Shown: positions 5,421 through 26,981 of the stretch, piece by piece
Layout: every line of letters starts with the position of its first letter
How positions within the stretch are numbered: the stretch's first letter is position 1
Source of the DNA: Thermodesulfobacteriota bacterium
GTDB lineage: Bacteria > Desulfobacterota > WTBG01 > JAGOGO01
Assembly (NCBI GenBank): GCA_026625185.1
Contig: CP113000.1
Span: 1,965,622-1,997,621 of the forward strand
Length of the DNA: 32,000 bases
Reading direction: 5' to 3'
Made by a program: the position numbers and the translations under genes
The notes under the pieces: generated by a model
The model's database searches: none
Seen by the model: the letters and a program-made list of their open reading frames with translations, nothing else
What the model was told of the DNA's origin: nothing

Positions 5421-7445
5421 CTAAACAGTAACATTAAAGTGCTCCCTGCTTTCTTCGTCCCAGACCCGGCACGCTTCGATAAGCAACATTTCGGTACTGT
5501 CAAAAATTTTCTGATCCAACAGTTGAGCATCAGGGTCCAGGATAAAAAGACCATGTTCCCAGCGCACTAAAAGATTAAAGGCCGCAACTCCTTCGACCTG
5601 TTTGTATCGGGCATTGATAACCTGTCCCTGGTCGAAGAATACTTCACCATTTTCCTCCTCCTTAAAAAGTTTAAGGGCTCCGGTCTTCCCTCCCGCGGAG
5701 AGCATTTGAATAAGGTCGGTAACGTGGATTTCCGCCAAGTTACCGGTAATGCCTTTTTTAGTCGAAGCGGACTTGGCTTTTTCTTGAGCTTTTTGGAGAG
5801 TATGTTTGATAAAATTCTGAATCTTGGCAATGAGGATGCTTGTGTTATAGGGTTTGGTAATAAAATCATCAGCGCCAACATCAAAACCCTTGCTTACGGT
5901 AGCGGGGTCGTGTTTTTCTGACAAAAAAACGAAATTGATGTTCCGATATTTATCATTAGCCTTTATTAGATCGCAAATAGAGAATCCATCGAGAGGTTTT
6001 GTATTTACCTCTGAGATAATAAGACACACCGGACTACTATCAAGGATAGCGATAACTTTTTCCGTGTCCCTTAACGGATAAGGGAAAATACCATTTTTTT
6101 TTAACAAAACGGACAGGTGATCGAGTTCTTCAAGGTTAGTATCAATGATAATTGCGCGGGGTGAGGATTCATCAATAAAGAGGTCTAAGATAATTTCCTC
6201 CAATAGGTTGACGATTTCCGGATCAAAGTATTTTTCTTTTAAAGAAAGGATAATGTCAAAGGAGCTTTTGAAGTTTTCATACCCTTCAAAATTAAGGAGG
6301 TGGATTAAGGCATCGACGGTTGCAATGATTCGGGAACCGAGCGGGATATCCTCACCTTTAAGGCCATCCGGGTCCCCTTCGCCGTCGTATCGTTCAAGGG
6401 TGTGAAGAAGAATTTTGTGAACTTCCGGGGGGAGGCGAGCGCCCTCATAAAGGCGCTCCGAGGATTGGGAATACTTTTTTAAAAGGTCACGGTGGTGTTC
6501 AAAATTGAAATTAAAAAGCGTTAAATGCTCGGGCGCAGCCATACAACAATCATGTAAATACGCTGCCAGAACATTGTAATACGTTTCTATTGCTTTGAGT
6601 CCTAGGTTCTGGGAAATTTCTTTTACGAGCTTGGCGACACTCGCGGAATGGCCCCGATAGCTTTCCCCTTTATACATTTCCAAGACATTGATCACGATAT
6701 TAAGCACCTCAATGAAGGTGTCGTCACTCAAAACCGACAAGGGGGATATTTGGTCCGCAAGGCGTTTTTGGCTTTCTTCTTCCGTTTTAGCGGGAGTGAG
6801 AATTTGATCGTCTATTATTACTGTTTTTGACTTTCGCTTTAGAACTTGAGTGGGTTTCAGGACTGGATTATCTGACTCAGTAAAGTCAGAATCGAGCAGC
6901 ACCGCAGAGTCTTCTTTTGGAACAAAGCTGGCAATGCTCTGGGGACTTTCGGTTTTGATCACTGTTTTTAGATTTTCCAGCGAAGAAGAATCATTTCCGT
7001 AAAATTTTTTTATCCCCGCTTTAATGGTGGAGTCTAAGGCGATATAAAGTTCTATTTCATTATATCCGGAGATATGTTTGATTAACTTGGACAGTTGTTT
7101 GTTCTCTGGGTCAGCAATCGCGACAGAGACTGTTTTGGATTTATCATAGCAGAAGAAAGGAAACACATTGTGTTTTAATGCAAAATCAGAAGGGATGAGT
7201 TCTAATACCCATTGGGGGATAGTCATTTTTAAAAGCTTGTCAGAAGAAATATATCTGACCTTAAAAAGTCCTGCCAGACACTTAAGGAGATCTATCTCAT
7301 TTAAAAAACCCAATTCAACCAGGAGTTCACCTATTTTTATCTGGGAATCCCCTCCTTTTTGCTGGCTAAGGGCGGCATTTAATTGCTCTTGGGTTATGAA
7401 TCCCAGCTCAATGAGTATTTCGCCGATCTTTTTGTTGCCGGTCAT
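5421..7445 (-). CDS. Multidomain signalling protein: MshEN/T2SSE_N-like N-terminus, degenerate HD-GYP (GDP variant), receiver with Glu at the phospho-site, C-terminal DUF4388
   Basis: 674 aa.
- N-terminus: KIGEILIELGFITQEQLNAALSQQ followed by KIGELLVELGFLNEIDLLKCLAGL, a tandem of the MshEN type.
- HD-GYP-like region: GHSASVAKLV...YLHDCCM...HTLERYDGEGDPDGLKGEDIPLGSRIIATVDAL, with GYP replaced by GDP and HHE replaced by HTLE.
- Receiver-like region: AIIIDTN...CLIISEVNTKPLDGF...FVFLSEK...FITKPY, with Asp->Glu at the acceptor position.
- DUF4388-like region: GNLAEIHVTDLIQMLSAGGKTGALKLF...GQVINARY...GVAAFNLLVRWEHGLFILDP. Confidence 0.75.
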   Translation of the reverse strand: MTGNKKIGEILIELGFITQEQLNAALSQQKGGDSQIKIGELLVELGFLNEIDLLKCLAGLFKVRYISSDKLLKMTIPQWVLELIPSDFALKHNVFPFFCYDKSKTVSVAIADPENKQLSKLIKHISGYNEIELYIALDSTIKAGIKKFYGNDSSSLENLKTVIKTESPQSIASFVPKEDSAVLLDSDFTESDNPVLKPTQVLKRKSKTVIIDDQILTPAKTEEESQKRLADQISPLSVLSDDTFIEVLNIVINVLEMYKGESYRGHSASVAKLVKEISQNLGLKAIETYYNVLAAYLHDCCMAAPEHLTLFNFNFEHHRDLLKKYSQSSERLYEGARLPPEVHKILLHTLERYDGEGDPDGLKGEDIPLGSRIIATVDALIHLLNFEGYENFKSSFDIILSLKEKYFDPEIVNLLEEIILDLFIDESSPRAIIIDTNLEELDHLSVLLKKNGIFPYPLRDTEKVIAILDSSPVCLIISEVNTKPLDGFSICDLIKANDKYRNINFVFLSEKHDPATVSKGFDVGADDFITKPYNTSILIAKIQNFIKHTLQKAQEKAKSASTKKGITGNLAEIHVTDLIQMLSAGGKTGALKLFKEEENGEVFFDQGQVINARYKQVEGVAAFNLLVRWEHGLFILDPDAQLLDQKIFDSTEMLLIEACRVWDEESREHFNVTV

Positions 7446-8840: not shown

Positions 8841-8910
8841 TTAAACACTGTCCAAAAGCATATCATAATTCAACAAGTTAATGGTTAGCATTTTTACCTG
8901 GAGGTGCAGA

Positions 8911-10572
8911 ATGTTAAGACATTTAAAACTTTCTTATAAATTATATTTTTTAAGTATAGGGACAATACTTCTTTTTTCTTTTACGTTGATTGGTGTGTGT
9001 CAAAAGTACAAACAAAGCCTGTTTAAACTGGATTATAAAAAGATTGAAGGGTTCAATCAAGTTGCGTGGGGGGTGTTAGATTTTTACGCTAAACAGGCTA
9101 ACGCAAATCTCATGACCAAGGATGAAGCTCAAGCCAAAGCAAAAGATGCAATAAAAAACCTGAGCTACAAAGAAACAAATGGCTCCGGTGGATATTTCTT
9201 CATTCTTGATACTGAACCACGGATGATTTGGCATCCTATTGCTTCGTATCTTGGAAAAAATCTTGCGAACGATGTTGACCCGGATGGGAAAAGGCTTTTT
9301 GTTGAAATGGTAGACATTGCCAAAAGCAAGGGAGAGGGTTTTTTGGATTATCGTTGGCCCAAACCCGGTAGCACTGCGCCAGTTGAAAAAATTTCTGCTG
9401 TCAAGATGTTACCGGAATGGGGTTGGATAATCGGAACGGGAATTTACATTGACGACAGCAAAGCCCAAGCTAACCAAATAGCTGGTTCTTTTATTTGGAT
9501 ACTTATTGCGATAGTGATTATCGCACTCCTCGCGACGTTTTTTATAGTCCGATCTATTACCCACCCAATTCAAGAAGTAATCACGTCCCTCACCAGCAGT
9601 GCTGAGGAGGTGGCATCAGCTTCTGGCCAAATATCCCAGGCAAGCCAGCAGCTCGCGGAGAGCTCCAATGAACAAGCCGCTTCCATAGAAGAGACCGCTT
9701 CATCTTTAGAAGAGATGTCTTCGATCACAAAGAAGAATGCGGAGAGCACAAAACTTGCGAGCCATTCGGCGGCTGATCTTATGGACTCCTTGGCAAAAGG
9801 AAAAGACGCCATGGCACGGATGTCCAACACGATTGCCCAGATCCAACAATCTTCAGATCAAACAACGAAAGTTATAAAAACTATCGAAGAAATCGCCTTT
9901 CAGACAAATTTGTTAGCTCTAAATGCAGCAGTGGAAGCGGCACGAGCGGGAGAATCCGGCCGGGGGTTCAGCGTGGTAGCCGAAGAAGTCCGCAACTTGG
10001 CTCGACGGTGTTCAGAAGAAGCCAAAAATACCGCTGCCTTCATTGAAGAATCTGTTAAGAATGCGCAAAGTGGGGTTCAGGTGTGCGGTGAAGTTGCAAA
10101 GATATTAAATAAAGTCGCTTTAGGAATAGAAAAAATGGCCCAGATGTCAGGAGAACTTTCCGCAGCGAGCGACGAGCAGGCCCGCGGCATCGAACAGATA
10201 AACGTTGCGGTTACTGAGATGGACAAAATCACCCAGGGTAATGCTGCAAATGCGGAAGAGTCAGCCTCATCAAGCGAACAACTTTCGGCTCAGTCGGAGG
10301 TGCTTTTTGGCTTTATAGAAGTTTTGATTGAATTGGTGAATGGAAATAAAAATAGACAGTTGAATCGTGGGGAGGCAGAAAAAATAGGTGGCATCAGCCC
10401 AGTGGGTACAAAGAAAAAAGACCTAAAGCCCCTCCCAAATGATATTAAGGGATTACCAGGCCGTAAACAAACGCACCCAAAAACACCAATGCTAATCCCA
10501 CTCCGGGAACCAAAGATCGCCAGGCCGGAACAACTTATCCCTTTGGAAGATAGTGATCTTAAGGAGTTCTGA
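8911..10572 (+). CDS. Methyl-accepting chemotaxis protein with a periplasmic sCache_2-like sensor and a long Pro/Lys-rich C-terminal tail
   Basis: The start at 8911 is preferred (GGAGG sits 6 nt upstream); the track start at 8881 lacks an SD. TM1 is [13 protein letters not shown]. Cache-like region: [17 protein letters not shown]...[14 protein letters not shown]...[15 protein letters not shown]2 follows. The signalling hairpin is [39 protein letters not shown] saw no obvious HAMP domain. Confidence 0.9.
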
Positions 10573-10745
10573 TAGAATACATTTACACCTCCTATCTATA
10601 TAGGAATTGTTCGACGCATCATGATTACCAAGATTTTTTAAGTATATGGCACCATCAAGTTCAAAATAAGTTATTTGAATTGCATTAGAAATATTTTAAA
10701 AAGAACAAAACAAGGGTGGGTTTAATAAGAAAAGGGGAGGAAAAA

Positions 10746-11111
10746 ATGAAGGTAATTGTGGTGGATGATTCATTGGTGATGAGAAAAATCATTGTCAATG
10801 TGGTTGAATCTTTAGGCTATGAAGGTGTTCATGCGACCAATGGAAAAAACTTATTAGAAATCTTGGAACACTGTGGTGGAGAAGTCGGGCTAGTCTTGCT
10901 TGATTGGAATATGCCGGGGATAAACGGAATTGAAGCTCTTAAAACTATGCAGAAAGACAGTCGCTTTCGTGCCATTCCGGTGTTCATGATTTCTACTGAA
11001 TCAGAAGATGCAAAAGTTGGAGAAGCTTTAAAAACAGGAGCAAAAGGCTATTTAGCAAAGCCCTTTACTCCAGAAGAGCTGGCGGCAAAAATAAAGGATA
11101 TTTTGGGGTAG
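10746..11111 (+). CDS. cheY: CheY-like single-domain response regulator
   Basis: The start at 10746 (MKVIVVDDS) has GGGGAGG 7 nt upstream. Canonical residues are present: DD (VVDDS), the acceptor Asp (LVLLDWNMPGING), Thr/Ser (FMISTES) and Lys (LAKPF). Confidence 0.9.
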   Translation: MKVIVVDDSLVMRKIIVNVVESLGYEGVHATNGKNLLEILEHCGGEVGLVLLDWNMPGINGIEALKTMQKDSRFRAIPVFMISTESEDAKVGEALKTGAKGYLAKPFTPEELAAKIKDILG

Positions 11112-11170
11112 CCAGTACTTACTGACGGTGGTATGGAACTTCAAGAAGTCCACTCTAACGCGGAGATTTT

Positions 11171-12022
11171 ATGAACAAAATAATTCTATATGACTGCAGT
11201 CAGGAAGTGACTGACATGGTTAACAATCTCTTTGGGAAAAAGGTAGCCATTGAAAATTCTTCCTTTGATGCTCAGAGGCCTCTTCAAGAATTCCGCATGG
11301 TTATTGTTGAGACCGGCAGTAAAAAAACCGAGCAGTTATTGCAAGAGATCAAAGCATTACGATATGCCTGTAACTTTAGAAACATTCCCATTATTGTGAT
11401 GAAAAAAAAAGGCGACACCTACCCTAACAACCCTTATCTTATGGCTGGCGCTACTGAAATTTTGTCTTGGGAAGCCCCGCCCTTAGCTTGTCGACAGATC
11501 CTCCAGGGGTATCTGATCCCGAACCGGAAACCGTTAGATCAAGAGATGGAATACCTTACCCCTTTTATTGACAGCACTAAACATATTTTGAAGACCATGA
11601 CTTCGATGGATGCTGAATATAAAGAACTATATTTTCCCAGTGACTTTCGAATATTTGGAGATGTTTCAGGGATCGTCGGGTTATCCGGAAAAGCAGAAGG
11701 GAATGCGGTAATTACTTTTTGTTGGGATTTGGCCCGAAAAGTTATTTCTCACATGATGCGTGTGACCGAAGATCAAATCAATGCTGAGTTTATTCACGAT
11801 GGGGTGGGGGAGCTGATAAATATGATCAGCGGATTTGCGAAAAAGTCTTTTGTTGGGAAGCCCTATCATTTTGAACTTTCAATACCCACTGTGGTGATGG
11901 GATCAGGCCATCAAATTGGGCATCCTGAAGAGGCAAGCATCGCTTTACTTATCTTTGATGTTGAAAAAAATTCCTTCGCCTTGCAGGTGTGCCTTAAACT
12001 TAAAATAGAAAAAGGCAATTAA
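11171..12022 (+). CDS. Degenerate receiver-like N-domain fused to a CheX/CheC-family phosphatase domain
   Basis: 283 aa. The C-terminal half carries the CheC/CheX/FliY signature D-x3-E-x2-N followed by Pro about 22 residues later (DGVGELINMISGFAKKSFVGKPYHFELSIP), plus GIVGLSGKAEGNAVITF. In the N-terminal ~115 aa, IILYDCS...MVIVETGSKK...PIIVMKKK resembles a receiver with Glu at the acceptor position and other conserved residues lost. Confidence 0.7.
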   Translation: MNKIILYDCSQEVTDMVNNLFGKKVAIENSSFDAQRPLQEFRMVIVETGSKKTEQLLQEIKALRYACNFRNIPIIVMKKKGDTYPNNPYLMAGATEILSWEAPPLACRQILQGYLIPNRKPLDQEMEYLTPFIDSTKHILKTMTSMDAEYKELYFPSDFRIFGDVSGIVGLSGKAEGNAVITFCWDLARKVISHMMRVTEDQINAEFIHDGVGELINMISGFAKKSFVGKPYHFELSIPTVVMGSGHQIGHPEEASIALLIFDVEKNSFALQVCLKLKIEKGN

Positions 12023-12024
12023 CT

Positions 12025-12058
12025 GGTACCATGTAAAAAAGGGTACAATGTAAAAAAG
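12025..12058 (+). repeat. Tandem 17-bp direct repeat just after the cheX-fusion stop
   Basis: GGTACCATGTAAAAAAG (12025-12041) is immediately followed by GGTACAATGTAAAAAAG (12042-12058), 16/17 identical. Confidence 0.8.
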
Positions 12059-12259
12059 TTTTGTTTTCCGGATTTTGCCCACCAGTAATCCAGGTGGGAA
12101 AATGGGCGAGTTTTCTATCGGTAATTTCCTCTTGCCGATTGAATAAACAGTCAGATGCAGGTAAGAAAAAATTCTTTGAAAAGGGGATTGCGCCATTCAC
12201 GGTGGACTGGCAGCTTTATCCTCCATGACTGGGAATGTAAAATTGAACGATAAACAACC

Positions 12260-14089
12260 ATGAGCGAAAAAAATGAAATCCTTTTAATTAACCGTGACAA
12301 AGGGTTTCTGGAGGACATGGCCGGGTCTCTCCGTCAAGCGGAATTTAAAGTTCATACCGCTTTTGGGATGCACGAAGCCTTGTTGGCCCTTACTTTTTAT
12401 CCCGTGGGTTTAATACTTTGTGATAATGTTTTACAGGATGTTACGGGATACGATTTTTTAAGGTTTTTAAAAAATGACCCGCTAAGGGACTCGGTCCCCT
12501 TTGTATTTTTTGTGCCCATCAATGACCAGGGACACGCTTTTAAAGCTTTTGAATTGGGAGCAGATGATTTTTTAGTGTACCCCATGGAAGTAGAGGATTT
12601 TGTCAGCCGGATAAAGGAAATAATGGCGCTCCAGTATCCTGCTGCAAAGGAAATTCCTGTTGATGGGTCCGGCAAAGCCTCTCCACTGTTACCCGCTGAT
12701 ACAACAACACCTCCGCAGGAACGACGTCGGGCCAAAAGGAAGCAGCCCTTGCCTAATCTAAAGGTCTCTCTTTCCAGGGATGAAATTCTTTGGATGCCGG
12801 GGAGAATAAAAAATTTTAGCCTCGATGGCATGTTAGTGATTACCTCTTTGCTGGGAAAGCCGGGGGTTTCACTTATAGTGAAGTTTTCACTGCCTCAAGG
12901 AGTTGTCACCATCAAGGGACACATTAAACATGTTGCTTTTGATGATTTTCGGCAACCAGTGGGCCTAGGGGTAACCTTTCCGGAAAATTCAGCGTGGCGC
13001 GAGATCAATGATTATTTTACTTCCCTTATTAACTCGGCAGACCCTGGAACCTCAAAAAAAGAATCTTGTGAACAACAAACACCTTCTCCTCCTCAGTGGA
13101 CAGGAGCCGGAAAAACAGTCTTTCTCCCTTACCAAGGATCGGAAGGAGAGGATTTCCTCCTGTCAGACAGTGCTCCGAGAACCGAAGAAGAAACGTATGA
13201 ATCCCGATTCTATCATAGCTTGGTGGGCAAGCAGCTCGGTTCCTATAAAGCAGTGTGTTTCATTGGCTCAGGCAGCATGGGGGGGGTTTTCAAAGGTTGG
13301 GATTCTGCTCTGGAGCGGGAGGTGGCGCTCAAAGTAATTTCTTTTGAGCTATCTTCCCAAGAGACTTTTCGGGAAATGTTCATTAAAGAAGCCCGATTGA
13401 TCTCCAAGCTCGACCATCCCAATATTGCACACATCTATTCCATTGGAGACACTGACGGCATTCTTTTTTTTGCGATGGAATTAATCGCCGGGGAAACTTT
13501 GTCGGATTTGATAATAGAACATGGCAACCTTAACACATTAAAGGGCTTGGATTATTTGTTAACGGTGTGTCAAACCTTAGACTTTGTTAGGCAAAAGAAT
13601 ATAATCCACCGCGATATAAAGCCGGAAAATATTGTTATCAATGACAAAGGGGTTTTAAAGATCGTTGATTTTGGAGTAGCCAAAAAAATTGATGTTAATG
13701 CCCCCGGAGAGATGCCGGAAGGTATCGTGGGGTCACCTCTTTATATCTCTCCTGAGTCAATTTCCGGCCACGTTATTGATCATCGCAGTGATATTTATTC
13801 TTTGGGCGCTACCTTTTACCATGTGTTTACCGGCTACCCCCCTTTTGAAGGTGATGATGCTAAAACCATTCTCCTTCACCACCTCAACAGCAAGTCCAGA
13901 CCCCTTAAGGAAAGAAACCCAAAGGTCTCTGTTTTTCTCTCCCGGGTTATTGAAAAGATGATGGCAAAAGACCCTCAGGAACGGTACCAAAACTACAAAA
14001 CCATTGTTCAGGAGTTACAGTCTTTCCGTTCAATGGTTATCCAAGCCAAAAAAAAGAAAAATAGTTTTTTACCCGGCACGGGGCAATAA
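12260..14089 (+). CDS. Atypical receiver - PilZ - Hanks-type Ser/Thr protein kinase fusion
   Basis: 609 aa.
- REC-like region: LILCDNVLQDVTGYDFLRFLK has the acceptor Asp, but the conserved Lys is replaced (FLVYPM).
- PilZ motifs: RRAKR (the RxxxR type, from nt 12722) and NFSLDG (the D/NxSxxG type).
- Kinase motifs: GSGSMGGVFKG, VALKV, HRDIKPENIV, DFGVAK, GSPLYISPE.
- The SD before 12260 is weak, so the start is less certain. Confidence 0.85.
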   Translation: MSEKNEILLINRDKGFLEDMAGSLRQAEFKVHTAFGMHEALLALTFYPVGLILCDNVLQDVTGYDFLRFLKNDPLRDSVPFVFFVPINDQGHAFKAFELGADDFLVYPMEVEDFVSRIKEIMALQYPAAKEIPVDGSGKASPLLPADTTTPPQERRRAKRKQPLPNLKVSLSRDEILWMPGRIKNFSLDGMLVITSLLGKPGVSLIVKFSLPQGVVTIKGHIKHVAFDDFRQPVGLGVTFPENSAWREINDYFTSLINSADPGTSKKESCEQQTPSPPQWTGAGKTVFLPYQGSEGEDFLLSDSAPRTEEETYESRFYHSLVGKQLGSYKAVCFIGSGSMGGVFKGWDSALEREVALKVISFELSSQETFREMFIKEARLISKLDHPNIAHIYSIGDTDGILFFAMELIAGETLSDLIIEHGNLNTLKGLDYLLTVCQTLDFVRQKNIIHRDIKPENIVINDKGVLKIVDFGVAKKIDVNAPGEMPEGIVGSPLYISPESISGHVIDHRSDIYSLGATFYHVFTGYPPFEGDDAKTILLHHLNSKSRPLKERNPKVSVFLSRVIEKMMAKDPQERYQNYKTIVQELQSFRSMVIQAKKKKNSFLPGTGQ

Positions 14090-14157: not shown

Positions 14158-16422
14158 ATGGCCCTGGACAATAAAACAATCAAGGAAGAAGGTTTTTCCC
14201 CGATGAATTATTCGGAGGACATGTTGGTTCATTCTGTTGATGATTTGGCAACGGCTCTTATCCAACTTGAACCATATGATAGTTCAGGCATCAGCCATTT
14301 TCGGGAATCGCTTAAAGAGGTTATGGAGAATGGATCATTTTCTGAACCAGTGAAAAAAAAATTAAAGGAAGCATTAGGGAAAATCGAAAGAGTGATAGAG
14401 GGAAAATCTTCTGCCACTGAAGCTGCTTTAATCGAGACCGGTAAAATCATTGAAGAAGTGATGCAGGAAATGGCCCCGCAAGAGTTTGCCTCTGCGCCCA
14501 AAAGCTTTGTTTCCGAAGAGGAAGTCGAGGCTTTAGAAAAAAAAGAACTCAAGTATTTTTCCAACGATGCCGACCATAGCCTTATAAAAGAATTTATTGT
14601 TGAAAGCATGGAGTTAATTACCTGGGCGGAAGAGGCTTTGCTTACCTTAGAAAATGATCCTGATGATGGCGAGGCAATTGCCACTGTTTTCCGCGCTTTT
14701 CATACCATCAAGGGGACTTCTTCTTTTCTTGAGCTAAAAATTGTATCCGAACTTGCTCACCACACCGAGTCACTGTTTAGCCAAGTTCGAGAAGGTTCAA
14801 TCCGCTACGGAGGTGGTTATGCTGAGGTTGCGCTTTATTCGGTGGACATGATCAAAGAAGTTATCCGTTTGGTAGAAGAAGCCTTGCGGGGGAAGCCCTT
14901 GTTAAAACCACCAGGATACAATGAACTCATCCATCTGCTCCAACATCCCGAACAAGCCTGCGCTTTGAGAGGGGTGGAAGAAATAACTCCCCCTTCAGCT
15001 CGACTAGGTGATATCTTGGTTTCTCAGGGAGTGGTGAAACGTGAAGAATTAGAAGAAGCGGCACAAAAGAAAGGCGATAAACCTTTAGGGGTGGAACTTT
15101 TAAAATTAAAAACAGTGTCAATAAAAGACGTTGCCAGAGCCCTTCGAACACAAAAGCGGATGCAAGGAGTCACTCCAGAGCTTGAATCGTCGGTACGAGT
15201 TAGAACTGACCGACTTGATAAATTAATTGATATGGTTGGGGAAATGGTCATCGCTCACTCGATGGTTACTCAGGACAGTATGAAGATGGGAGAGGACTAT
15301 TATGAATTTCAGCAAAGGGTTTCCCACACGGGTAAGATTGTTCGGGAACTTCAGGACTTGAGCATGTCGATTCGGATGGTTCCCCTTAAATCAATCTTCC
15401 AGAGAATGACTCGACTGGTCCGTGATCTTGCGAATAAATCGGGGAAGCACATAAATTTTTTAACATTTGGTGAGGAAACTGAGGTTGACCGCAACATGGT
15501 TGATCTTGTCGCCGATCCTCTGATGCACATGGTGCGAAATTCAGTAGACCACGGCATAGAATTTCCCGAAGAGCGGGAAAAGAACGGGAAATTTCGCGAG
15601 GGAACAATAAAACTTTCTGCTTATCATTCGGCAGGCAATGTAGTGATAGAAATAGAGGATGACGGGCGAGGTCTTGACCGAGATGTCATTTTTGCGCGGG
15701 CCCGGGAGAAAGGGCTTATTAGTGACGTAAGCTTACATACAGAACGGGATATTCTCAACCTGATCTTTGAGCCGGGATTTTCCACTGCCGACAAGGTTAC
15801 TGATATTTCCGGCCGGGGTGTGGGTCTGGATGTGGTAAAAAAGAACATTACCGCTCTGCGAGGCAAGATTGAGGTCCAGTCAAATGCCGGAAAGGGTTGT
15901 GTCTTTAAAGTTCGGGCACCGCTTACCCTCGCTATTATTGATGGGATGATTATTCGCGCAGGCAAAGAACGATACGTCATTCCTACCGTTTCGATCGTGA
16001 AAGCGTTACAGCCTCAAGAGAAAGATCTCAGCACGGTGCTTAAAAAAGGAGAAATGCTTTTCTTGCAAGGGAAATTCATTCCGCTGTTACGATTAGGTGA
16101 CCTTTTTGATATTGAAGATGCTCAGTCGGAACCCACGCAGGCCATTGTTGTTGTGGTTGAAGATAATGAACGGCATACGGGAATTGTGGTGGATGAACTT
16201 CTTGGACAACAGCAGATTGTTATTAAGTCGTTGGGAGAGGCATTGAGAGATTTTCGGGGTGTTTCCGGAGGCGCGATTATGTCGGATGGACGGGTGGGAC
16301 TAATACTCGATGTAGGCGGGTTGGTCAAACTTGCTCACGCGGAGCAGGCAGAATGGGAGGATAGAAGGAGAGTGAAAGAAATTACAAAAATAGAAAAGGA
16401 GGATAAACATGAGTTATCATGA
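14158..16422 (+). CDS. cheA: CheA histidine kinase with an N-terminal extension and an MshEN-like insert in place of P2
   Basis: 754 aa. The Hpt motif is FRAFHTIKGTSSFL. Dimerisation region: VRVRTDRLDKLIDMVGEMVIAHS. HATPase motifs: HMVRNSVDHGIE, DDGRGLD, GRGVGLDVV. A C-terminal CheW-like domain is present. Residues 282-332 (nt 15001-15153) read RLGDILVSQGVVKREELEEAAQKK-GDK-PLGVELLKLKTVSIKDVARALRTQ. About 135 aa of unassigned acidic sequence precede Hpt. Confidence 0.9.
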   Translation: MALDNKTIKEEGFSPMNYSEDMLVHSVDDLATALIQLEPYDSSGISHFRESLKEVMENGSFSEPVKKKLKEALGKIERVIEGKSSATEAALIETGKIIEEVMQEMAPQEFASAPKSFVSEEEVEALEKKELKYFSNDADHSLIKEFIVESMELITWAEEALLTLENDPDDGEAIATVFRAFHTIKGTSSFLELKIVSELAHHTESLFSQVREGSIRYGGGYAEVALYSVDMIKEVIRLVEEALRGKPLLKPPGYNELIHLLQHPEQACALRGVEEITPPSARLGDILVSQGVVKREELEEAAQKKGDKPLGVELLKLKTVSIKDVARALRTQKRMQGVTPELESSVRVRTDRLDKLIDMVGEMVIAHSMVTQDSMKMGEDYYEFQQRVSHTGKIVRELQDLSMSIRMVPLKSIFQRMTRLVRDLANKSGKHINFLTFGEETEVDRNMVDLVADPLMHMVRNSVDHGIEFPEEREKNGKFREGTIKLSAYHSAGNVVIEIEDDGRGLDRDVIFARAREKGLISDVSLHTERDILNLIFEPGFSTADKVTDISGRGVGLDVVKKNITALRGKIEVQSNAGKGCVFKVRAPLTLAIIDGMIIRAGKERYVIPTVSIVKALQPQEKDLSTVLKKGEMLFLQGKFIPLLRLGDLFDIEDAQSEPTQAIVVVVEDNERHTGIVVDELLGQQQIVIKSLGEALRDFRGVSGGAIMSDGRVGLILDVGGLVKLAHAEQAEWEDRRRVKEITKIEKEDKHELS

Positions 16423-16942
16423 TGATGTTTCGCAGCTTGGTGGAATAAAGGGAGGGCTGGCAGATAAGGCGGAGAAGTACTTAACCTTTAACCTTGCGGC
16501 TGAAGAATATGGTATCGAAATTTTAAAAGTGCAGGAAATTATCGGACGCATGCCGGTAACCAAGGTTCCCCGCACCCCCCCTTTTATTCGAGGCGTAATC
16601 AATTTACGCGGCAAAGTGATTCCGGTATTTGATTTGAGATTGAAATTCGGCATGGAGATTAAAGAGGATACCCCTAGGACATCAATTATTGTTGTTAAAA
16701 TTAAACGCTCAGGACATCACATGACCATGGGTGTAATTGTGGATGATGTATATGAAGTCGTGGGTATTGAGGCAAAAGATATTGAGCCGACACCTGAGTT
16801 TGGCGCCAATATAGATACTGATTTTATTTTGGGGGTCGGAAAGATAAATCAGAAAGTCGTGATGCTTCTCGATGTCGATAAAGTTTTATCAGGGGGAGAA
16901 GTTACACTCGTTGATCAGGTTACCCACGTTCAAGAAAAATAA
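16409..16942 (+). CDS. cheW: CheW coupling protein
   Basis: 177 aa. YLTFNLAAEEYGIEILKVQEI...RGVINLRGKVIPVFDLR is the typical CheW pattern. AGGAGG lies 6 nt upstream, and the gene overlaps the cheA end by 14 nt. Confidence 0.9.
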   Translation: MSYHDDVSQLGGIKGGLADKAEKYLTFNLAAEEYGIEILKVQEIIGRMPVTKVPRTPPFIRGVINLRGKVIPVFDLRLKFGMEIKEDTPRTSIIVVKIKRSGHHMTMGVIVDDVYEVVGIEAKDIEPTPEFGANIDTDFILGVGKINQKVVMLLDVDKVLSGGEVTLVDQVTHVQEK

Positions 16943-17075
16943 ATTAAAGGCTTGCTTCTTCACGCCCGGTAAAGGGGAAAAATGATTTTGACCGGATGAA
17001 GAAAGATCAAAGAGATCAGAAATGAAAAACTTTTTTAGGTTTTAAAAAAGTTATCCTTTATCGTAAGAGGCATTT

Positions 17076-17945
17076 GTGTTATTAGAAAAAAGAACAATTC
17101 AAAATTGCGTGAGCGAACAAAAAAATACTGTAGACTCAACATCGCTTGACTTGAGTCAAAAACATTTTTTAAAGATAAGCAAAACAGTTCACCAAATGTG
17201 CGGCATTAGCCTTCACGAGGGGAAAAAGGCCTTAGTGCGATTCCGTCTTTTGAAGCGGCTTCGGGCGTTGGGAATGGAAAGTTTTAAAGAATATATTGAC
17301 TTTCTTGAGCATGATAGTTCCGGAAAAGAAATCCGTTCGCTGATTGATGTTATGACCACCAACAAAACCAACTTTTTTCGGGAGATAACCCATTTTAATT
17401 ACCTTCGCGAGAATATTTTACCTGACCTCAAGGTGCCGCACCTTCGTTTCTGGTGCGCCGGGTGTTCTTCGGGTGAAGAACCTTTTTCATTAGCTATTGT
17501 GCTGCGCGAAGAAATAGAGAACATTGACATAAGGGATATTAAGATTTTAGCAACCGATGTCTCTTTAAAAATGCTGGAGATGGTTCGTCAGGCATACTAT
17601 TCTCCAGAAATGCTCGGTGATATAACTCCACTGCTGCTGCAAAAATATTTTATCCGAGTTCGAAGCGAATCAACGACGCTTTACCAGGTTAAAGATGAAA
17701 TACGGGCGATGGTCCGCATAGGCCGGATTAACTTGATAGAACCCTGGCCCATGAAAGGTCTTTTTCATGTTATCTTTTGCAGAAATGTCATGATCTATTT
17801 TGACCGGCAAACCCAGCAGGAGCTTATAAATCGTTTTTGGGAATTTCTTCAAACCGGCGGGTACCTCTTTCTTGGTCATTCGGAGAGCCTTTCGGCCATT
17901 AGTCATAATTTTAAATATATGACCCCAGCGGTCTACCGAAAATAA
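17076..17945 (+). CDS. cheR: CheR chemotaxis protein methyltransferase
   Basis: 289 aa with a GTG start and AAGAGG upstream. Motifs seen: TNKTNFFRE, and the SAM-binding region RFWCAGCSSGEEPFSLAI ... IFCRNVMIYFD. Confidence 0.9.
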   Translation: MLLEKRTIQNCVSEQKNTVDSTSLDLSQKHFLKISKTVHQMCGISLHEGKKALVRFRLLKRLRALGMESFKEYIDFLEHDSSGKEIRSLIDVMTTNKTNFFREITHFNYLRENILPDLKVPHLRFWCAGCSSGEEPFSLAIVLREEIENIDIRDIKILATDVSLKMLEMVRQAYYSPEMLGDITPLLLQKYFIRVRSESTTLYQVKDEIRAMVRIGRINLIEPWPMKGLFHVIFCRNVMIYFDRQTQQELINRFWEFLQTGGYLFLGHSESLSAISHNFKYMTPAVYRK

Positions 17946-17967: not shown

Positions 17968-18438
17968 ATGCACATTCGCAAGGAGATTATTTATCACGTT
18001 TTGGAAGAGATTCTGGAGAACTTAGCTTTTCTCTTTTTTGCGCCGGACGACACCCGGGATACCATGGACTATAATTTGGCGGTTGCGGCCAAGATATCCT
18101 TTACCGGCCTTTTTTCAGGCATGCTGGTTCTTGCTATTTCTAATCAGATTCTTCCTGAAATAGCTCGAAACATGCTTGGGGTAGACGAAGACATTCCTGT
18201 TCATCACCAGCACGACGCCTTTAAAGAGCTTCTCAATGTGATCTGTGGAAACATGCTGCCCGCGATCGCAGGGAAAAGAGAAGTTTTTACTATTGGTGTT
18301 CCCGATATCATTTCCCCGGAAGAAATGACCGCGTCAGCTTTTCGTTGCCCCACAACATCCATGGCCAAAGCAGAACTGGATAGTGGTAAGATTGATTTTT
18401 TTTTACTTATTGATGGCGAAGAGATCCCCGAAACATAG
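17968..18438 (+). CDS. CheX/CheC-like small chemotaxis phosphatase-family protein
   Basis: 156 aa. It has the signature D-x3-E-x2-N (DAFKELLNVICGNMLPAIAGKREVFTIGVP) with Pro at the same spacing as in the 11171-12022 protein. The gene sits between cheR and cheB. Confidence 0.6.
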   Translation: MHIRKEIIYHVLEEILENLAFLFFAPDDTRDTMDYNLAVAAKISFTGLFSGMLVLAISNQILPEIARNMLGVDEDIPVHHQHDAFKELLNVICGNMLPAIAGKREVFTIGVPDIISPEEMTASAFRCPTTSMAKAELDSGKIDFFLLIDGEEIPET

Positions 18439-18482: not shown

Positions 18483-19541
18483 ATGATCAAAGTTCTTATT
18501 GTAGATGATTCTGCGGTCATCCGTAAAATTTTGACCGAGGAACTGTTTAAATACCAAGATATCGACATTATCGGCACTGCGGTTGACCCTTATATCGCCC
18601 GGGATAAAATCGTGCGCCTTCGTCCGGATGTTATTACTCTTGACTTAGAAATGCCCCGGATGGATGGTCTCTCATTTTTGGCGAAACTGATGCAGTATTA
18701 TCCTGTGCCGGTGGTAATACTGAGTTCCTTTACGCCGGAAAATAGCGAAAATGCTTTACGAGCCTTAGAATTAGGTGCGGTTGAAGCCATTTGTAAACCG
18801 GGGTCTTCATATGCTGCTGCAGATGTTTCTAGGAGGTTGGTTCAGGCTATTCGGGCGGCAGCGTCTTCACGGATCGTAAGTTTAAAACAATCAGTCACTA
18901 CCCCAGCCATAGGGCAACTTAATAACCTTCACATCCAAACCGCTGACAAGGTAATTGCTATTGGCGCCTCTACCGGAGGAACCAGGGCTATCGGGATTGT
19001 GCTTATGAGCCTTCCTAAAAATACGCCTGGTGTCTTAATTGTTCAACATATGCCGGAAAGCTTCACTCACGCTTATGCGGAAAGATTAAATAAAATGTGC
19101 TTGCTTGAGGTGAGGGAAGCTAAGGATAATGATCATGTAAAACCGGGAGTAGCATTAATTGCACCCGGCGATCGACATATGATACTTAGCCAAAGCAGAG
19201 GGAAAAATGTGGTAAAGATTAAAGAAGGCCCGCCAGTTAATTATCAAAGGCCCAGTGTTGATGTATTATTTCAATCAGTAGCTCGATGCGCCGGGGAAAA
19301 TGCAATGGGGGTTTTGCTGACCGGTATGGGAGCTGACGGCGCCAAAGGAATGCTTGCTTTATATGAACGCGGGGCTTACACTATAGCACAGGATGAGGAG
19401 AGTTGCGTGGTATTTGGCATGCCACGGGAAGCGATAAAACTTGGCGCGGTTGATAAAGTTGTTTCTTTGCAAGAAATCCCCCGGACGATTATTAAGGCTT
19501 CAGATAATCCACTGATAAAACCGCGGGTAAAAAGATTATAA
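18483..19541 (+). CDS. cheB: CheB protein-glutamate methylesterase (REC + esterase)
   Basis: 352 aa. The receiver is canonical (VDDS, ITLDLEMPRMDG, KP). The esterase catalytic motifs are GASTGG, QHMP and TGMGADG. Confidence 0.95.
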   Translation: MIKVLIVDDSAVIRKILTEELFKYQDIDIIGTAVDPYIARDKIVRLRPDVITLDLEMPRMDGLSFLAKLMQYYPVPVVILSSFTPENSENALRALELGAVEAICKPGSSYAAADVSRRLVQAIRAAASSRIVSLKQSVTTPAIGQLNNLHIQTADKVIAIGASTGGTRAIGIVLMSLPKNTPGVLIVQHMPESFTHAYAERLNKMCLLEVREAKDNDHVKPGVALIAPGDRHMILSQSRGKNVVKIKEGPPVNYQRPSVDVLFQSVARCAGENAMGVLLTGMGADGAKGMLALYERGAYTIAQDEESCVVFGMPREAIKLGAVDKVVSLQEIPRTIIKASDNPLIKPRVKRL

Positions 19542-19671: not shown

Positions 19672-20157
19672 TTGACAAATTATTTTCTCAAGCCTGGCTA
19701 CATCTTTTTGCCTTCGAAATCAGTGTCGATCTCAACGGTGCTTGGCTCTAGTGTTTCGGTCTGTATTTATGATCGGAGGCGGAAAGTAGGAGGAATGAAT
19801 CACTTTAGGCTTCCTTATACCCGGGAGAAGCATATAGCGACCCCGATATTTGGGAACGTTGCCACGCTGGCTCTGATCCGGATGATGCTCGAAGATGGTT
19901 CTAAATTAAAACACTTGGAAGCACAAATTTTCGGGGGGGCGCATAATTTCAAACTTTGTCCCCAGAATATTGGATTAGAAAATATTAAGATTGCCCGGAG
20001 AATCTTGGTACGGAAGAGCGTACCCATTGTTTCGGAAGATGTTGGAGGAATGAAAGGAAGAAAAGTTGTTTTTTCCACCAATTTTAATGAAATCGTTGTA
20101 CTCCGCGTAGAACGTCTCCGGAGGTCTGACTGGTACCCTTATGATGAGGACCGTTAG
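19672..20157 (+). CDS. cheD: CheD chemoreceptor glutamine deamidase
   Basis: 161 aa. LGSSVSVCIYD...GGMNHFRLP...GG..GRKV is the CheD pattern. TTG is the first possible start after an in-frame stop at 19633 and has no clear SD, so the 5' boundary is uncertain. Confidence 0.8.
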   Translation: MTNYFLKPGYIFLPSKSVSISTVLGSSVSVCIYDRRRKVGGMNHFRLPYTREKHIATPIFGNVATLALIRMMLEDGSKLKHLEAQIFGGAHNFKLCPQNIGLENIKIARRILVRKSVPIVSEDVGGMKGRKVVFSTNFNEIVVLRVERLRRSDWYPYDEDR

Positions 20158-25581: not shown

Positions 25582-26022
25582 ATGTTTCGCGGCTCATACG
25601 AACATACCATTGATTCAAAGGGCAGGGTCAGTTTACCGGCTCAATTTCGAAGCCTGTTACCCAAGGATAACGAGCGCCTGGTAATCACGAACTATATTCC
25701 CTCTCATCTTTGGGCTTTTACGTATGAGAACTGGATAAAATTAGAGGAAAAATTAGCCTCCTTTCCTTTGACTGATCCGGATATTCGTTCTTTTAAACAT
25801 TTTTTTGTTGCCGGCGCTCACGATGTGCCGGTGGATAAGTTAGGCCGGGTTCTGGTCCCCCCCAGGCTCCGTGAATATGCCCAGTTAAACAAAGAGGTTG
25901 TTTTTGTCGGATCGATTACCCATATCGAAATCTGGGATAAAGGAAATTGGAAACCCACGTTTACAACCTCTGAGTCAAACGTGGAACAGGTTGCCCGAAA
26001 ATTGGCTGACCTGGGTTTTTAA
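25582..26022 (+). CDS. mraZ: Transcriptional regulator MraZ
   Basis: 146 aa. Two SpoVT/AbrB-like repeats carry the DxxGR motifs (DSKGRVSLPAQFR and DKLGRVLVPPRLRE). First gene of the dcw order. Confidence 0.95.
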   Translation: MFRGSYEHTIDSKGRVSLPAQFRSLLPKDNERLVITNYIPSHLWAFTYENWIKLEEKLASFPLTDPDIRSFKHFFVAGAHDVPVDKLGRVLVPPRLREYAQLNKEVVFVGSITHIEIWDKGNWKPTFTTSESNVEQVARKLADLGF

Positions 26023-26025
26023 TAA

Positions 26026-26961
26026 ATGGCCGATTTCCATCAGCCGGTTTTATTAAACGAAACAGTATCAACACTCAACTGCCATCCCGGCGGGATTTAT
26101 GTAGACGCGACAGTAGGTGGAGGAGGTCATGCGTTTCACATATTTAAAATCTGTCCACATATCAAACTGCTCATTGGTATTGACCGAGATGAAGATGCCT
26201 TGCTCCAGGCTGAACGAAGACTGGCTTCCTTTAAAAGCCAGGTTGTTTTGATTAAAGAAAATTATTCACAGATTAAAACAATTATCTCAGATTTGCAAAT
26301 AAAATCAGTGGATGGAGTTCTTCTTGATCTTGGCGTTTCTACACATCAGCTTTTATCTTCTAACCGGGGGTTTGGATTTTCTGCCGAGGGACCTCTCGAT
26401 ATGAGAATGGATAGAGAACAACAGATCACCGCGTCTGATTTAGTAAACACTCTTCCCGAACAAGAGTTAAGGAAAATTCTACGGGAATACGGTGAGGAAA
26501 GGCACGCGGCCTCGATTGCAAAAACGATTGTAAGGGAAAGAAAAAAACAACCGATAAAAACAACCTTGGAGTTGGCAAATGTGGTTGCCAGGGCAATTCC
26601 TTTTTCGCCGCGTCCGCGAAAAATCCATCCGGCAACCAGAACTTTTCAGGCATTGAGGATTGCGGTCAATGACGAATTTGCCAACCTGGAGAGCGTTCTT
26701 CCTGATGCCGTCGATATATTGGCGCAAAAAGGGAGGATAGCGGTCATTTCTTTTCATTCCTTGGAGGATCGAATCGTTAAAAATTTTTTTCGCCAACAAT
26801 CAAAGTCCTGTGTTTGTTCCCCGCGACTGCCGAAATGCGCATGCGGGCAGATCCGAAAACTTAAGGTGCTAACCAAAAAGCCGATTGTGCCAACGGCTGA
26901 AGAAATAAGGATGAATCCTCGTTCCCGGAGTGCCCGGCTTCGGGGAGCAGAAAAACTCTAA
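26026..26961 (+). CDS. rsmH: 16S rRNA m4C1402 methyltransferase RsmH (MraW)
   Basis: 311 aa. Motifs seen: HQPVLLNE, DATVGGGGHA, DLGVSTHQL, FHSLEDRIVK. Confidence 0.95.
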   Translation: MADFHQPVLLNETVSTLNCHPGGIYVDATVGGGGHAFHIFKICPHIKLLIGIDRDEDALLQAERRLASFKSQVVLIKENYSQIKTIISDLQIKSVDGVLLDLGVSTHQLLSSNRGFGFSAEGPLDMRMDREQQITASDLVNTLPEQELRKILREYGEERHAASIAKTIVRERKKQPIKTTLELANVVARAIPFSPRPRKIHPATRTFQALRIAVNDEFANLESVLPDAVDILAQKGRIAVISFHSLEDRIVKNFFRQQSKSCVCSPRLPKCACGQIRKLKVLTKKPIVPTAEEIRMNPRSRSARLRGAEKL

Positions 26962-26981
26962 AGATCAAGGAGGAGATGATT

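Follow-up and report, generated by a model that had tools for sequence, protein, structure and literature searches.

Among the described systems closest to the protein analysed here is Pkn1 (MXAN_1467), a cytoplasmic protein from Myxococcus xanthus (a deltaproteobacterial-type organism) that carries both a PilZ domain and a Hanks-type kinase (PMC8316039; bioRxiv 10.1101/814665). The initial annotation of this DNA likewise named myxobacteria as an example of where PilZ-containing kinases occur. The PilZ domain of Pkn1 is predicted not to bind c-di-GMP, and PlpA illustrates that intact PilZ motifs do not guarantee binding of this messenger (PMC8316039). Another M. xanthus protein, PixA, combines PilZ with a receiver domain in motility-related signalling (PMC8316039). 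In Caulobacter, c-di-GMP activates the kinase ShkA via a regulatory pseudo-receiver, which is a precedent for the release of kinase autoinhibition by c-di-GMP (PMC7010744; bioRxiv 10.1101/675454). Links between c-di-GMP and Che proteins are known from MapZ-CheR1 (PDB 5xly), the PilZ chemoreceptor Tlp1 (PMC3604760) and fusions of MshEN domains to CheA or CheX, with MshEN fusions to Ser/Thr kinases listed in the same source (PMC5013675).

The locus considered here lies in a window (the whole stretch of DNA that was analysed, 32,000 nucleotides of contig CP113000.1 from a Thermodesulfobacteriota bacterium) in which ten co-directional genes with short gaps encode, in order, an MCP, a CheY-like protein, a CheX-like protein, a kinase, CheA, CheW, CheR, CheX, CheB and CheD. 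This run and its divergent neighbour are composed as follows (window coordinates).

5421-7445, minus strand: divergent neighbour, MshEN–HD–receiver–PatA_N/DUF4388 (Pfam; NCBIfam NF053729, 48.7 bits against a cut-off of 38)
8881-10572, plus strand: MCP, a Cache-domain chemoreceptor at the head of the run (Pfam MCPsignal, sCache_2, dCache_2)
10716-11111, plus strand: CheY-like receiver, gene 1 of the cassette described below (Pfam Response_reg, 93.8 bits)
11171-12022, plus strand: pseudo-receiver–CheX protein of 283 aa, cassette gene 2 (Pfam CheX, 68.5 bits)
12023-12259, no strand: 237-bp spacer that separates cassette gene 2 from the kinase gene (from ORF boundaries)
12260-14089, plus strand: kinase ORF, 609 aa, ATG start
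14158-16422, plus strand: CheA with Hpt, dimerisation, HATPase and CheW domains (Pfam; NCBIfam CheA, 417 bits)
16409-16942, plus strand: CheW (Pfam)
17076-17945, plus strand: CheR (Pfam)
17968-18438, plus strand: CheX, the second one, within the che run (Pfam)
18483-19541, plus strand: CheB (Pfam)
19672-20157, plus strand: CheD (Pfam)

The kinase gene had been annotated as a three-part fusion, and this description stands, since Pfam finds Response_reg (PF00072; aa 7-118, with 44.4 bits where 30.2 are required), PilZ and Pkinase (aa 332-577, 173 bits) in one polypeptide and every motif quoted at the time is present in the translation: LILCD (51-55), FLVYPM (104-109), RRAKR (156-160), NFSLDG (185-190), the Gly loop IGSGSMGG (334-341), VALK (355-358), HRDIKPEN (450-457), DFG (470-472) and SPE (497-499). 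The gene can be divided into four parts.

12260-12628, plus strand: pseudo-receiver, aa 1-123 (Pfam, alignment to E. coli CheY, 93 relatives)
12719-13036, plus strand: PilZ domain, aa 154-259 (Pfam, AlphaFold, Foldseek)
13037-13195, plus strand: PilZ–kinase linker, aa 260-312 (low pLDDT, poor conservation)
13196-14089, plus strand: kinase domain (Pfam Pkinase, 173 bits)

The linker is modelled with a pLDDT below 50 over aa 261-308 and lacks a consensus in the alignment of 93 sequences, and the full-length model (pTM 0.52) does not fix the relative placement of the domains. Even at E up to 10, Pfam holds nothing usable for this linker, for the N-terminus of the CheX-like protein or for the first 141 residues of CheA. 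Similarly, NCBIfam has no dedicated model for the kinase protein or for the 283-aa CheX protein, which give generic matches only, below cut-offs.

The N-terminal domain is modelled as a five-strand alpha/beta fold (pLDDT about 75-94), and an alignment to E. coli CheY reveals that four of its five catalytic residues are replaced. As had been annotated, the acceptor Asp is kept (D55, which closes strand 3 and matches CheY D57 in the alignment, occurs in 88 of 93 relatives) and both the Thr/Ser and the Lys are lost (T87 and K109 of CheY correspond to V85 and Y107). What that description omitted is the loss of the Mg2+-binding acidic pair, D12 and D13 of CheY being replaced by N11 and R12. Bourret et al. 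(1990) reportedly found that a D13K variant of E. coli CheY cannot be phosphorylated. The replacements are themselves conserved (N11 in 90, R12 in 87, V85 in 89 and Y107 in all 93 relatives), and in deeper relatives of about 700 aa even the acceptor position is occupied by Gly. Judged by these residues, the domain is a pseudo-receiver as defined in a recent review, i.e. a receiver fold without catalytic residues (PMC12632262), whose phosphorylation is probably not to be expected. With D55 alone left of the catalytic set, and with the substitutions conserved, direct phosphotransfer from CheA to the kinase is unlikely, although D55 may have some role, even through an unorthodox phosphorylation, given its presence in so many relatives.

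For the middle domain, the initial annotation had proposed PilZ with both c-di-GMP motifs intact, and this is borne out by profile, motifs and fold. The match to PF07238 (aa 154-244) reaches 23.8 bits when the whole protein is scanned and 28.5 bits when the domain is scanned alone, both above the Pfam cut-off of 22.5, and 25 of 27 relatives match PilZ in this domain and no other Pfam family. In the RxxxR motif (R156-R-A-K-R160), which sits at the end of a low-confidence linker in the AlphaFold model, R156 is found in 88 and R160 in 89 of 93 relatives. In the (D/N)xSxxG motif (N185-F-S-L-D-G190), N185 is found in 87 and G190 in 92, while 51 relatives have Ser and 36 have Asn at the Ser position (S187). 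A search of PDB sequences with a profile of this domain returned no PilZ entry, only one spurious designed-repeat protein, so its identity was decided by fold comparison. The model is a six-stranded barrel with a C-terminal helix (97-112; pLDDT 82.7), and 37 of the 40 top Foldseek matches in the PDB are PilZ domains (TM-scores 0.5-0.67), including YcgR, BcsA, VCA0042, MotI, Alg44, MrkH and MapZ. The PilZ domain therefore probably binds c-di-GMP, a prediction made from motifs and fold. Since the relatives of about 700 aa, with two PilZ-like barrels devoid of these motifs, still keep the cassette, the cassette in general does not depend on binding of c-di-GMP.

The kinase domain (PF00069) is apparently catalytically competent, in line with the initial annotation, since it has the complete catalytic set (G336/G338/G341, K358, E377, H450-R-D452, N457, D470-F-G472 and S497-P-E499). 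All 93 relatives share K358, D452, K454, N457 and D470-F471-G472, E377 is found in 92, and the other residues of the set likewise occur in all 93 or in 92. The closest solved sequences are those of M. tuberculosis PknB (about 3e-47). In the activation loop, the only conserved Ser/Thr among relatives is S492, and the window kinase has no Ser/Thr in the variable part, a pattern in keeping with regulation through the N-terminal domains and not through autophosphorylation of the loop.

The two genes directly upstream encode proteins of chemotaxis type. The first, which probably starts at ATG 10746 since relatives begin MKVI.., specifies a canonical single-domain receiver, with DD, D, S and K aligned with D12/D13, D57, T87 and K109 of E. 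coli CheY; its best NCBIfam match is CheY, under the equivalog cut-off, and it is the sole CheY of the che run. In the second, a degenerate receiver-like domain makes up aa 1-115 and a CheX phosphatase domain aa 125-275; the family profile of this protein matches solved structures of CheX (6vpw, 1.2e-25) and shows weak similarity to CheY homologues over aa 29-101 (3gwg, 7e-4). The phosphatase active site D/S-x3-E-x2-N ... P is present, with D210, E214, N217 and P239 invariant in 15 relatives. Its N-to-P spacing is one residue shorter than in the published consensus for the CheC/CheX/FliY motif. This CheX-like family numbers 322 proteins, all of about 275-305 aa, which come from the taxa in which the kinase family occurs, often with longest contigs of matching length.

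These three genes form a conserved unit. Full-length relatives of the kinase fall into more than 120 clusters at 90% identity, nearly all from Desulfobacterota, and a kinase domain is present in all long proteins related to the receiver–PilZ region. The three-way fusion is thus not the rarity for which it had been taken, nor is it a one-off or a misassembly, some of these relatives being on contigs of several megabases. In all loci that reach far enough upstream, the kinase gene is directly preceded by the CheY-like and the pseudo-receiver–CheX genes, which is the case in 23 of 23 GTDB species loci and in eight further loci (L079-L086), one relative being just 32% identical in the N-terminal region. 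The kinase gene is therefore the third member of a conserved three-gene Desulfobacterota cassette, and the kinase family with its two obligate partners is a well-delimited, unannotated one; in the literature searched, we found no description of either a receiver–PilZ–kinase protein or the three-gene cassette.

The che genes have a much narrower distribution. The placement of the kinase gene inside a che operon, which the initial annotation had pointed out, is true of the window and of three related loci (L001, L021 and L079), four loci with at least 70% identity in which cheA comes after the cassette, but it is no family trait, as neither cheA nor cheW, cheR or cheB follows the cassette in the 22 other loci with at least 2 kb of downstream sequence. 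The same che genes follow in L001 and L021, and CheW, CheR and CheB in L079. The MCP gene is absent at the matching position in these three loci (no tblastn match; gene list for L079). In L080, the upstream synteny is as in the window, without che genes, and elsewhere the neighbours of the cassette are other Ser/Thr kinases. Clustering of ORFs over 27 loci yielded one extra conserved neighbour, a 323-aa stand-alone kinase in nine loci of the Desulfatiglans group. Pfam annotation of the six loci without che genes to which it was applied (L080-L082, L084-L086) shows no histidine kinase gene adjoining the CheY-like gene; the nearest one is a PAS–HisKA gene about 7 kb downstream of the cassette in L084 and, in L086, an upstream gene for a Pkinase–GAF–HisKA_3 protein that is paired with its own REC–GerE regulator. 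Adjacency to che genes is therefore local to the small lineage of the window and not a property of the family.

Within the window, the kinase gene does lie directly upstream of cheA, as had been noted, but the gap there, from kinase stop to cheA start, is 68 bp. The 237 bp attributed to it are those of the spacer on the other side, which separates the kinase gene from the CheX-like gene upstream of it. An alternative cheA start that would give a gap of 237 bp was considered and rejected, since position 14327 lies in another frame and since CheA of L001 and L021 shares the N-terminus from its first residue onwards. The corresponding upstream spacer is 11-22 bp in relatives, and alignment with L021, L001 and L079 shows that about 215 of the 237 bp are an insertion common to the window and L021 only. 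This spacer shows no promoter-like or terminator-like site and no fold signal (z-score -0.75), has no second copy in the window and, among the loci compared, is found again in L021 only; Rfam has no match in the whole window, this spacer included. There is no terminator-like site in the other spacer bordering the kinase gene either. Two nearby proteins have candidate c-di-GMP motifs of their own. In CheA, an MshEN-like motif (aa 282-332, nt 15001-15153) occupies the usual place of P2; it scores 33.6 bits for the 'c-di-GMP_motif' model NF053729, below the cut-off of 38, and is conserved in CheA of L001 and L021. The divergent gene 5421-7445, which is conserved upstream of the cassette in the wider clade of the window (L021, L079 and L080), encodes tandem MshEN c-di-GMP motifs and a degenerate HD domain of HD-GYP type ('GDP').

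The explanation that we favour, to which we would give an even chance taken as a whole, is that the product of the kinase gene is a soluble Ser/Thr kinase of Hanks type with a regulatory region of two parts at the N-terminus, and that it is gated by c-di-GMP and receives its His-Asp input in trans. A histidine kinase (in the lineage of the window, the neighbouring CheA under the control of the Cache chemoreceptor) would phosphorylate the separate CheY-like protein, and the CheX-like protein would dephosphorylate the latter and reset the signal, CheX being known to dephosphorylate CheY-P (Park et al., 2004, as cited in PMC10542144). The phosphorylated CheY-like protein would act on the kinase, possibly through the surface of its pseudo-receiver (a contact that we purely infer), while c-di-GMP bound to PilZ would relieve or impose autoinhibition of the kinase, the output being Ser/Thr phosphorylation of targets. 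The kinase would thus combine the state of a phosphorelay with the level of c-di-GMP. A bolder version, which we offer tentatively as a possibility well short of probable, is that the cassette is portable and converts phosphorylation of a CheY-like protein and c-di-GMP into Ser/Thr phosphorylation, that the lineage of the window captured a complete Che array for it and that its two degenerate receivers dock the single true receiver.

Several other readings have to be weighed against the favoured one. The initial annotation suggested that His-Asp signalling, c-di-GMP and Ser/Thr phosphorylation are integrated in this protein, and while the fusion is real, the His-Asp part within the same polypeptide is doubtful on account of the degenerate receiver. 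For CheA to phosphorylate D55, so that one polypeptide would integrate three signals, is a scenario that we regard as highly improbable: the alignment and conservation of D55 and the start of cheA only 68 bp downstream speak for it, but the metal-binding aspartates, Thr/Ser and Lys have given way to conserved N11, R12, V85 and an invariant Y107, the acceptor is Gly in deeper relatives with the same cassette, 22 loci lack cheA downstream and a separate canonical CheY-like gene is always supplied. It is also unlikely that PilZ is an adaptor for protein interaction, making the kinase unresponsive to c-di-GMP as predicted for Pkn1. The marginal full-length Pfam score, the Asn that replaces the second-motif Ser in 36 relatives, the motif-less barrels of distant relatives and the PDB profile search without a PilZ entry would all be accounted for in this way, yet the window protein has both canonical motifs, both arginines, N185 and G190 are each found in at least 87 of 93 relatives, the fold agrees with PilZ structures that have c-di-GMP bound, and two more candidate MshEN-type motifs lie nearby, in CheA and in gene 5421-7445.

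The che genes themselves might be irrelevant, their adjacency being a rearrangement devoid of functional meaning and the kinase gene perhaps transcribed alone. Their presence after the cassette in four closely related loci only, the situation in L080, the other Ser/Thr kinases that adjoin the cassette elsewhere and the 215-bp insertion that parts the kinase gene from gene 2 are in keeping with such independence, which we nevertheless doubt, since the ten genes run in one direction at short distances, the spacers flanking the kinase gene lack a terminator-like site, the cassette provides the only CheY of the che run and two of its three genes (CheY-like and CheX) belong to chemotaxis-type families. 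A reversed flow of information, in which the kinase would act on chemosensory proteins by phosphorylating CheY-like, CheX or CheA on Ser/Thr and so tune the phosphorelay by c-di-GMP, fits with the strict linkage of the three cassette genes and with the fact that Hanks kinases phosphorylate response regulators in several bacteria. We think it improbable, but it is compatible with, and not exclusive of, the trans-input explanation.

If that explanation is correct, His-Asp phosphorelay, c-di-GMP and Hanks-type Ser/Thr phosphorylation converge on one enzyme, which makes this a testable case, the outputs of chemosensory arrays extend to protein Ser/Thr phosphorylation and a function is suggested for two conserved pseudo-receivers, a class of domains whose mechanisms of activation and inactivation have been called a mystery (PMC12632262). 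The portable-cassette version, if true, would add a chemosensory pathway with a Hanks-type kinase as output, of which we found no example in the literature searched. Sulfate-reducing and related Desulfobacterota, in which few signalling pathways have been characterised, widely carry this small and soluble cassette, so that its reconstitution in vitro should be feasible, and were the model to fail, a well-delimited family with two obligate partners would still await annotation.

Compared with known systems, the catalytic domain is most similar to those of M. tuberculosis PknB/PknA and S. pneumoniae StkP (2.4e-47 to 3e-41), but the protein scores 274 bits for the NCBIfam model PknB_PASTA_kin, below the cut-off of 450, and differs from the PknB type in having neither a transmembrane segment nor a PASTA domain nor a conserved Thr pair in the activation loop, its regulatory domains being N-terminal and cytoplasmic. 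In Pkn1, the kinase is N-terminal and the PilZ domain C-terminal. The window protein has the reverse order, PilZ preceding the kinase, and while Pkn1 is described as kinase plus PilZ only, without a receiver (a comparison of domain descriptions), it adds an N-terminal pseudo-receiver. It also carries both c-di-GMP motifs, whereas the PilZ domain of Pkn1 is a predicted non-binder, and no CheY or CheX partners have been reported for Pkn1. PixA has the opposite order (PilZ–receiver), lacks a kinase output and is treated as an ordinary response regulator (PMC8316039). ShkA is a histidine kinase whose pseudo-receiver itself binds c-di-GMP, whereas in the window a separate PilZ domain would bind the messenger and the enzyme is of Hanks type. 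Finally, none of the known c-di-GMP–Che links (MapZ-CheR1, Tlp1, MshEN–CheA/CheX) involves a PilZ–Hanks kinase or a three-gene cassette like the one outlined here.

The anatomy of the kinase and of its cassette is close to certain. The ORF lies at 12260-14089 (+, 609 aa, ATG start), the coordinates of the initial annotation, whose quoted motifs are all found in the translation, and the three-domain fusion that it proposed is matched throughout by Pfam (Response_reg, PilZ and Pkinase). The gene is a member of a ten-gene co-directional run, in which a CheY-like receiver gene, a 283-aa CheX-like gene and the kinase gene form the trio that we call the cassette.

Genes of the co-directional run and domains of the kinase (Pfam)
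8881-10572, +, Cache-type MCP
10716-11111, +, CheY-like receiver
11171-12022, +, 283-aa CheX-like protein
12260-14089, +, receiver–PilZ–kinase gene
14158-16422, +, CheA
16409-16942, +, CheW
17076-17945, +, CheR
17968-18438, +, CheX
18483-19541, +, CheB
19672-20157, +, CheD
aa 7-118 of the kinase, Response_reg, 44.4 bits (cut-off 30.2)
aa 154-244 of the kinase, PilZ, 23.8 bits (cut-off 22.5)
aa 332-577 of the kinase, Pkinase, 173 bits

A 237-bp gap had been placed between this gene and cheA, but it lies upstream of the kinase gene (12023-12259); the cheA ORF starts 68 bp past the kinase stop, and two relatives share the CheA sequence from its first residue onwards (tblastn with window proteins). 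The spacer between the CheX-like and kinase genes holds a ~215-bp insertion, which opens with a 17-bp direct repeat (GGTACCATGTAAAAAAG / GGTACAATGTAAAAAAG) and contains a CCCACC...GGTGGG hairpin. L021, one of three loci with close relatives of the kinase (with L001 and L079), is its only other carrier (86% identity); by alignment it is absent in L001 and L079, and no other copy was found in the window or in the remaining fetched loci. Rfam gave no match for the spacer, nor was there a fold signal. The Cache-domain chemoreceptor gene at the head of the run is missing from this position in all three loci, and it is a recent gain in the window genome or was lost in those relatives. Outside the che/cassette region and its neighbour, gene content is ordinary, with a multihaem cytochrome c (980-1930, -), a copper/heavy-metal P-type ATPase (2810-5269, -) and the start of a cell-division/cell-wall cluster (25582-30819, +; RsmH (MraW), PBP transpeptidase, Mur ligase).

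Because the full-length Pfam score of the PilZ domain is marginal, though above threshold, the domain was tested independently. Scanned one by one, 25 of 27 relatives matched PilZ (best E 2.6e-8) and nothing else; the isolated domain of the window kinase scores 28.5 bits (Pfam). The AlphaFold model of aa 148-262 (pLDDT 82.7) has six strands and a C-terminal helix, and PilZ domains make up 37 of its best 40 Foldseek matches in the PDB, including YcgR with c-di-GMP, BcsA, VCA0042, MotI, Alg44, MrkH and MapZ. Both c-di-GMP motifs are intact in the window protein and conserved among 93 relatives (R156 in 88, R160 in 89, N185 in 87, G190 in 92). Taken together, scans, model, structural matches and motifs thus identify a PilZ domain with an intact putative c-di-GMP-binding signature. 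The kinase domain has the residues of a catalytically competent Hanks kinase, as initially predicted: K358, D452, K454, N457 and D470-F471-G472 are invariant in the 93 relatives, and at the Gly loop, E377 and H450-R451 all 93 or 92 of them agree. Among solved structures, PknB, PknA and StkP are nearest to it in sequence. S492 is the sole Ser/Thr of the activation loop conserved among relatives, and the variable part of the loop has none in the window protein; the missing conserved activation-loop Thr fits control by the N-terminal domains. The full-length model has a pTM of 0.52, so it does not settle the domain arrangement.

The receiver was aligned with three others, E. coli CheY and the CheY-like and CheB receivers of the window, and columns were counted over the 93 relatives.

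Catalytic residues of E. coli CheY, their equivalents in the window kinase, and relatives keeping the latter
D12, N11, 90/93
D13, R12, 87/93
D57, D55, 88/93
T87, V85, 89/93
K109, Y107, 93/93

It had been noted that the acceptor Asp is kept and that the Lys and Thr/Ser are absent, which stands, but the equivalents of D12 and D13 are also replaced, so that four of five catalytic residues have changed and the replacements are themselves conserved. On its sequence, this domain is a pseudo-receiver as defined in PMC12632262. More distant relatives of ~700 aa have Gly at the acceptor position; three of these (P0124, P0127 and P0128; L082 6518-8644) have, between this pseudo-receiver and the kinase, two tandem PilZ-like barrels without RxxxR or (D/N)xSxxG, and genes for a receiver and a 279-aa CheX protein still precede that of P0124.

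By alignment, the CheY-like partner protein, the sole CheY in the che run, retains all catalytic residues (DD, D, S, K). The 283-aa protein ends in a CheX domain (family profile versus solved CheX structures, 1e-25) with D210, E214, N217 and P239 invariant in 15 relatives. Its family has 322 members, which are uniform in length and occur in the same taxa as the kinase; for several of them the longest contig is as long as that of a kinase cluster. The N-terminal 115 residues of the 283-aa protein, without a Pfam match, weakly match CheY homologues (7e-4), and E, Q or D stands where the acceptor would be expected; this part looks like a second degenerate receiver.

The three-way fusion, initially thought unusual, is no isolated case. 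Among 5.8 billion proteins searched, full-length relatives make up more than 120 clusters (90% identity); they are 48-89% identical to the window kinase, about 600-620 aa long and, where organisms are named, all from Desulfobacterota/Thermodesulfobacteriota. The receiver–PilZ region by itself (aa 1-262), used as query in an exhaustive search, gave only 15 clusters (50% identity) at E < 1e-30; all seven scanned relatives of at least 600 aa, and a receiver-less PilZ–kinase relative, have a C-terminal Pkinase. Among GTDB species genomes, scanned with peptide patterns of the window protein and thus biased to close relatives, 23 loci have full-length relatives. In every one reaching far enough, the CheY-like (46-91% identity) and ~283-aa CheX-like (49-89%) genes are directly upstream of the kinase gene (tblastn), and the same trio occurs in eight further loci, where one relative is 32% identical in the N-terminal region. 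When all ORFs of 27 loci were clustered, no further gene emerged as a widely conserved neighbour. In loci of other lineages, further Hanks kinase genes often adjoin the trio: in the Desulfatiglans group (L006-L014) one for a stand-alone kinase of 323 aa downstream, a Pkinase–cNMP_binding gene directly upstream (L084 7418-8701, L085 7417-8700) and, near the trio, that of a 1745-aa Pkinase–AAA_16–GAF–HisKA_3–HATPase protein, accompanied by a REC–GerE regulator (L086 2333-7570).

Placement in a run of che genes holds for the window but is no family trait. cheA-cheW-cheR-cheB follow the trio only there and in L001, L021 and L079, whose kinases share 70% identity or more with the window's; in a further 22 loci whose sequence extends 2 kb or more downstream, no cheA was found, by tblastn with window CheA (E 1e-8) and, in eight loci, by Pfam lists as well. 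In L080 (61% identity), upstream synteny is common with the window and the downstream genes are unrelated. In L021, a 96%-identical relative, the kinase match is broken into three frames (10001-11835), and CheW and part of CheR are present twice (14159-17025); both probably reflect faulty assembly or sequencing of this metagenome-assembled genome rather than biology.

Two further c-di-GMP candidates lie nearby. Window CheA has an N-terminal extension ahead of Hpt (aa 1-141, 14158-14580; no Pfam match), conserved in L001 and L021 (L079 CheA is 100 aa shorter), and, between Hpt and dimerisation domains (aa 282-332, 15001-15153), the segment 'RLGDILVSQGVVKREELEEAAQKKGDKPLGVELLKLKTVSIKDVARALRTQ', which scores 33.6 bits against NCBIfam NF053729 (MshE-related c-di-GMP binding motif; cut-off 38), is conserved in the same two loci and was not found in L079 CheA. 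CheA may therefore itself sense c-di-GMP, and PMC5013675 refers to fusions of MshEN with CheA. The divergent neighbour of the run (5421-7445, -; Pfam, NCBIfam) encodes an MshEN–HD_5–receiver–PatA_N/DUF4388 protein with two tandem c-di-GMP motifs in MshEN (NF053729 48.7 bits, above cut-off), 'GDP' in place of the GYP of HD-GYP proteins and, seemingly, Glu at the receiver acceptor position; L021, L079 and L080 have this gene upstream of the cassette as well.

How might the cassette work? The initial annotation suggested that His-Asp signalling, c-di-GMP and Ser/Thr phosphorylation are integrated here. D55 of the kinase's own receiver is kept, but with four of five catalytic residues replaced, direct phosphorylation of it by CheA is highly improbable. 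This receiver probably performs no phosphotransfer catalysis, and therefore the separate canonical CheY-like protein would most plausibly take the His-Asp input, with its CheX partner resetting the signal. The kinase would sense whether the CheY-like protein is phosphorylated, perhaps via the pseudo-receiver, with c-di-GMP at the PilZ domain as a second control and, in the window lineage, the adjacent CheA under the Cache receptor as phosphodonor. Our confidence in this composite of trans-acting input, CheX reset and c-di-GMP-controlled kinase is middling.

Other readings touch single parts of it. A PilZ domain that does not bind c-di-GMP is unlikely beside the conserved Arg, Asn and Gly positions, although the Ser position, which is Ser in 51 and Asn in 36 of the 93 relatives, speaks for it. 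That the cassette functions independently of che genes would suit the many loci where cheA was not found; we consider this doubtful. A kinase acting on Che proteins rather than downstream of them, which is compatible with the composite model, seems to us rather improbable.

The literature searched holds no description of the receiver–PilZ–kinase architecture or of the three-gene cassette. c-di-GMP is known to reach chemotaxis via MapZ–CheR1 (PDB 5xly), the receptor Tlp1 (PMC3604760) and MshEN fusions (PMC5013675), and PixA has, like the window kinase, a PilZ domain and a receiver, but it lacks a kinase domain (PMC8316039). According to PMC7010744 and bioRxiv 10.1101/675454, c-di-GMP activates Caulobacter ShkA through a regulatory pseudo-receiver, which by analogy is a precedent for such control of a kinase. 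Among described proteins, M. xanthus Pkn1 comes closest: it joins a Ser/Thr kinase to a PilZ domain that, by prediction, does not bind c-di-GMP (PMC8316039, bioRxiv 10.1101/814665). Pkn1 has neither a receiver nor reported CheY/CheX partners, whereas the window kinase has a pseudo-receiver and lies beside CheY-like and CheX-like genes.
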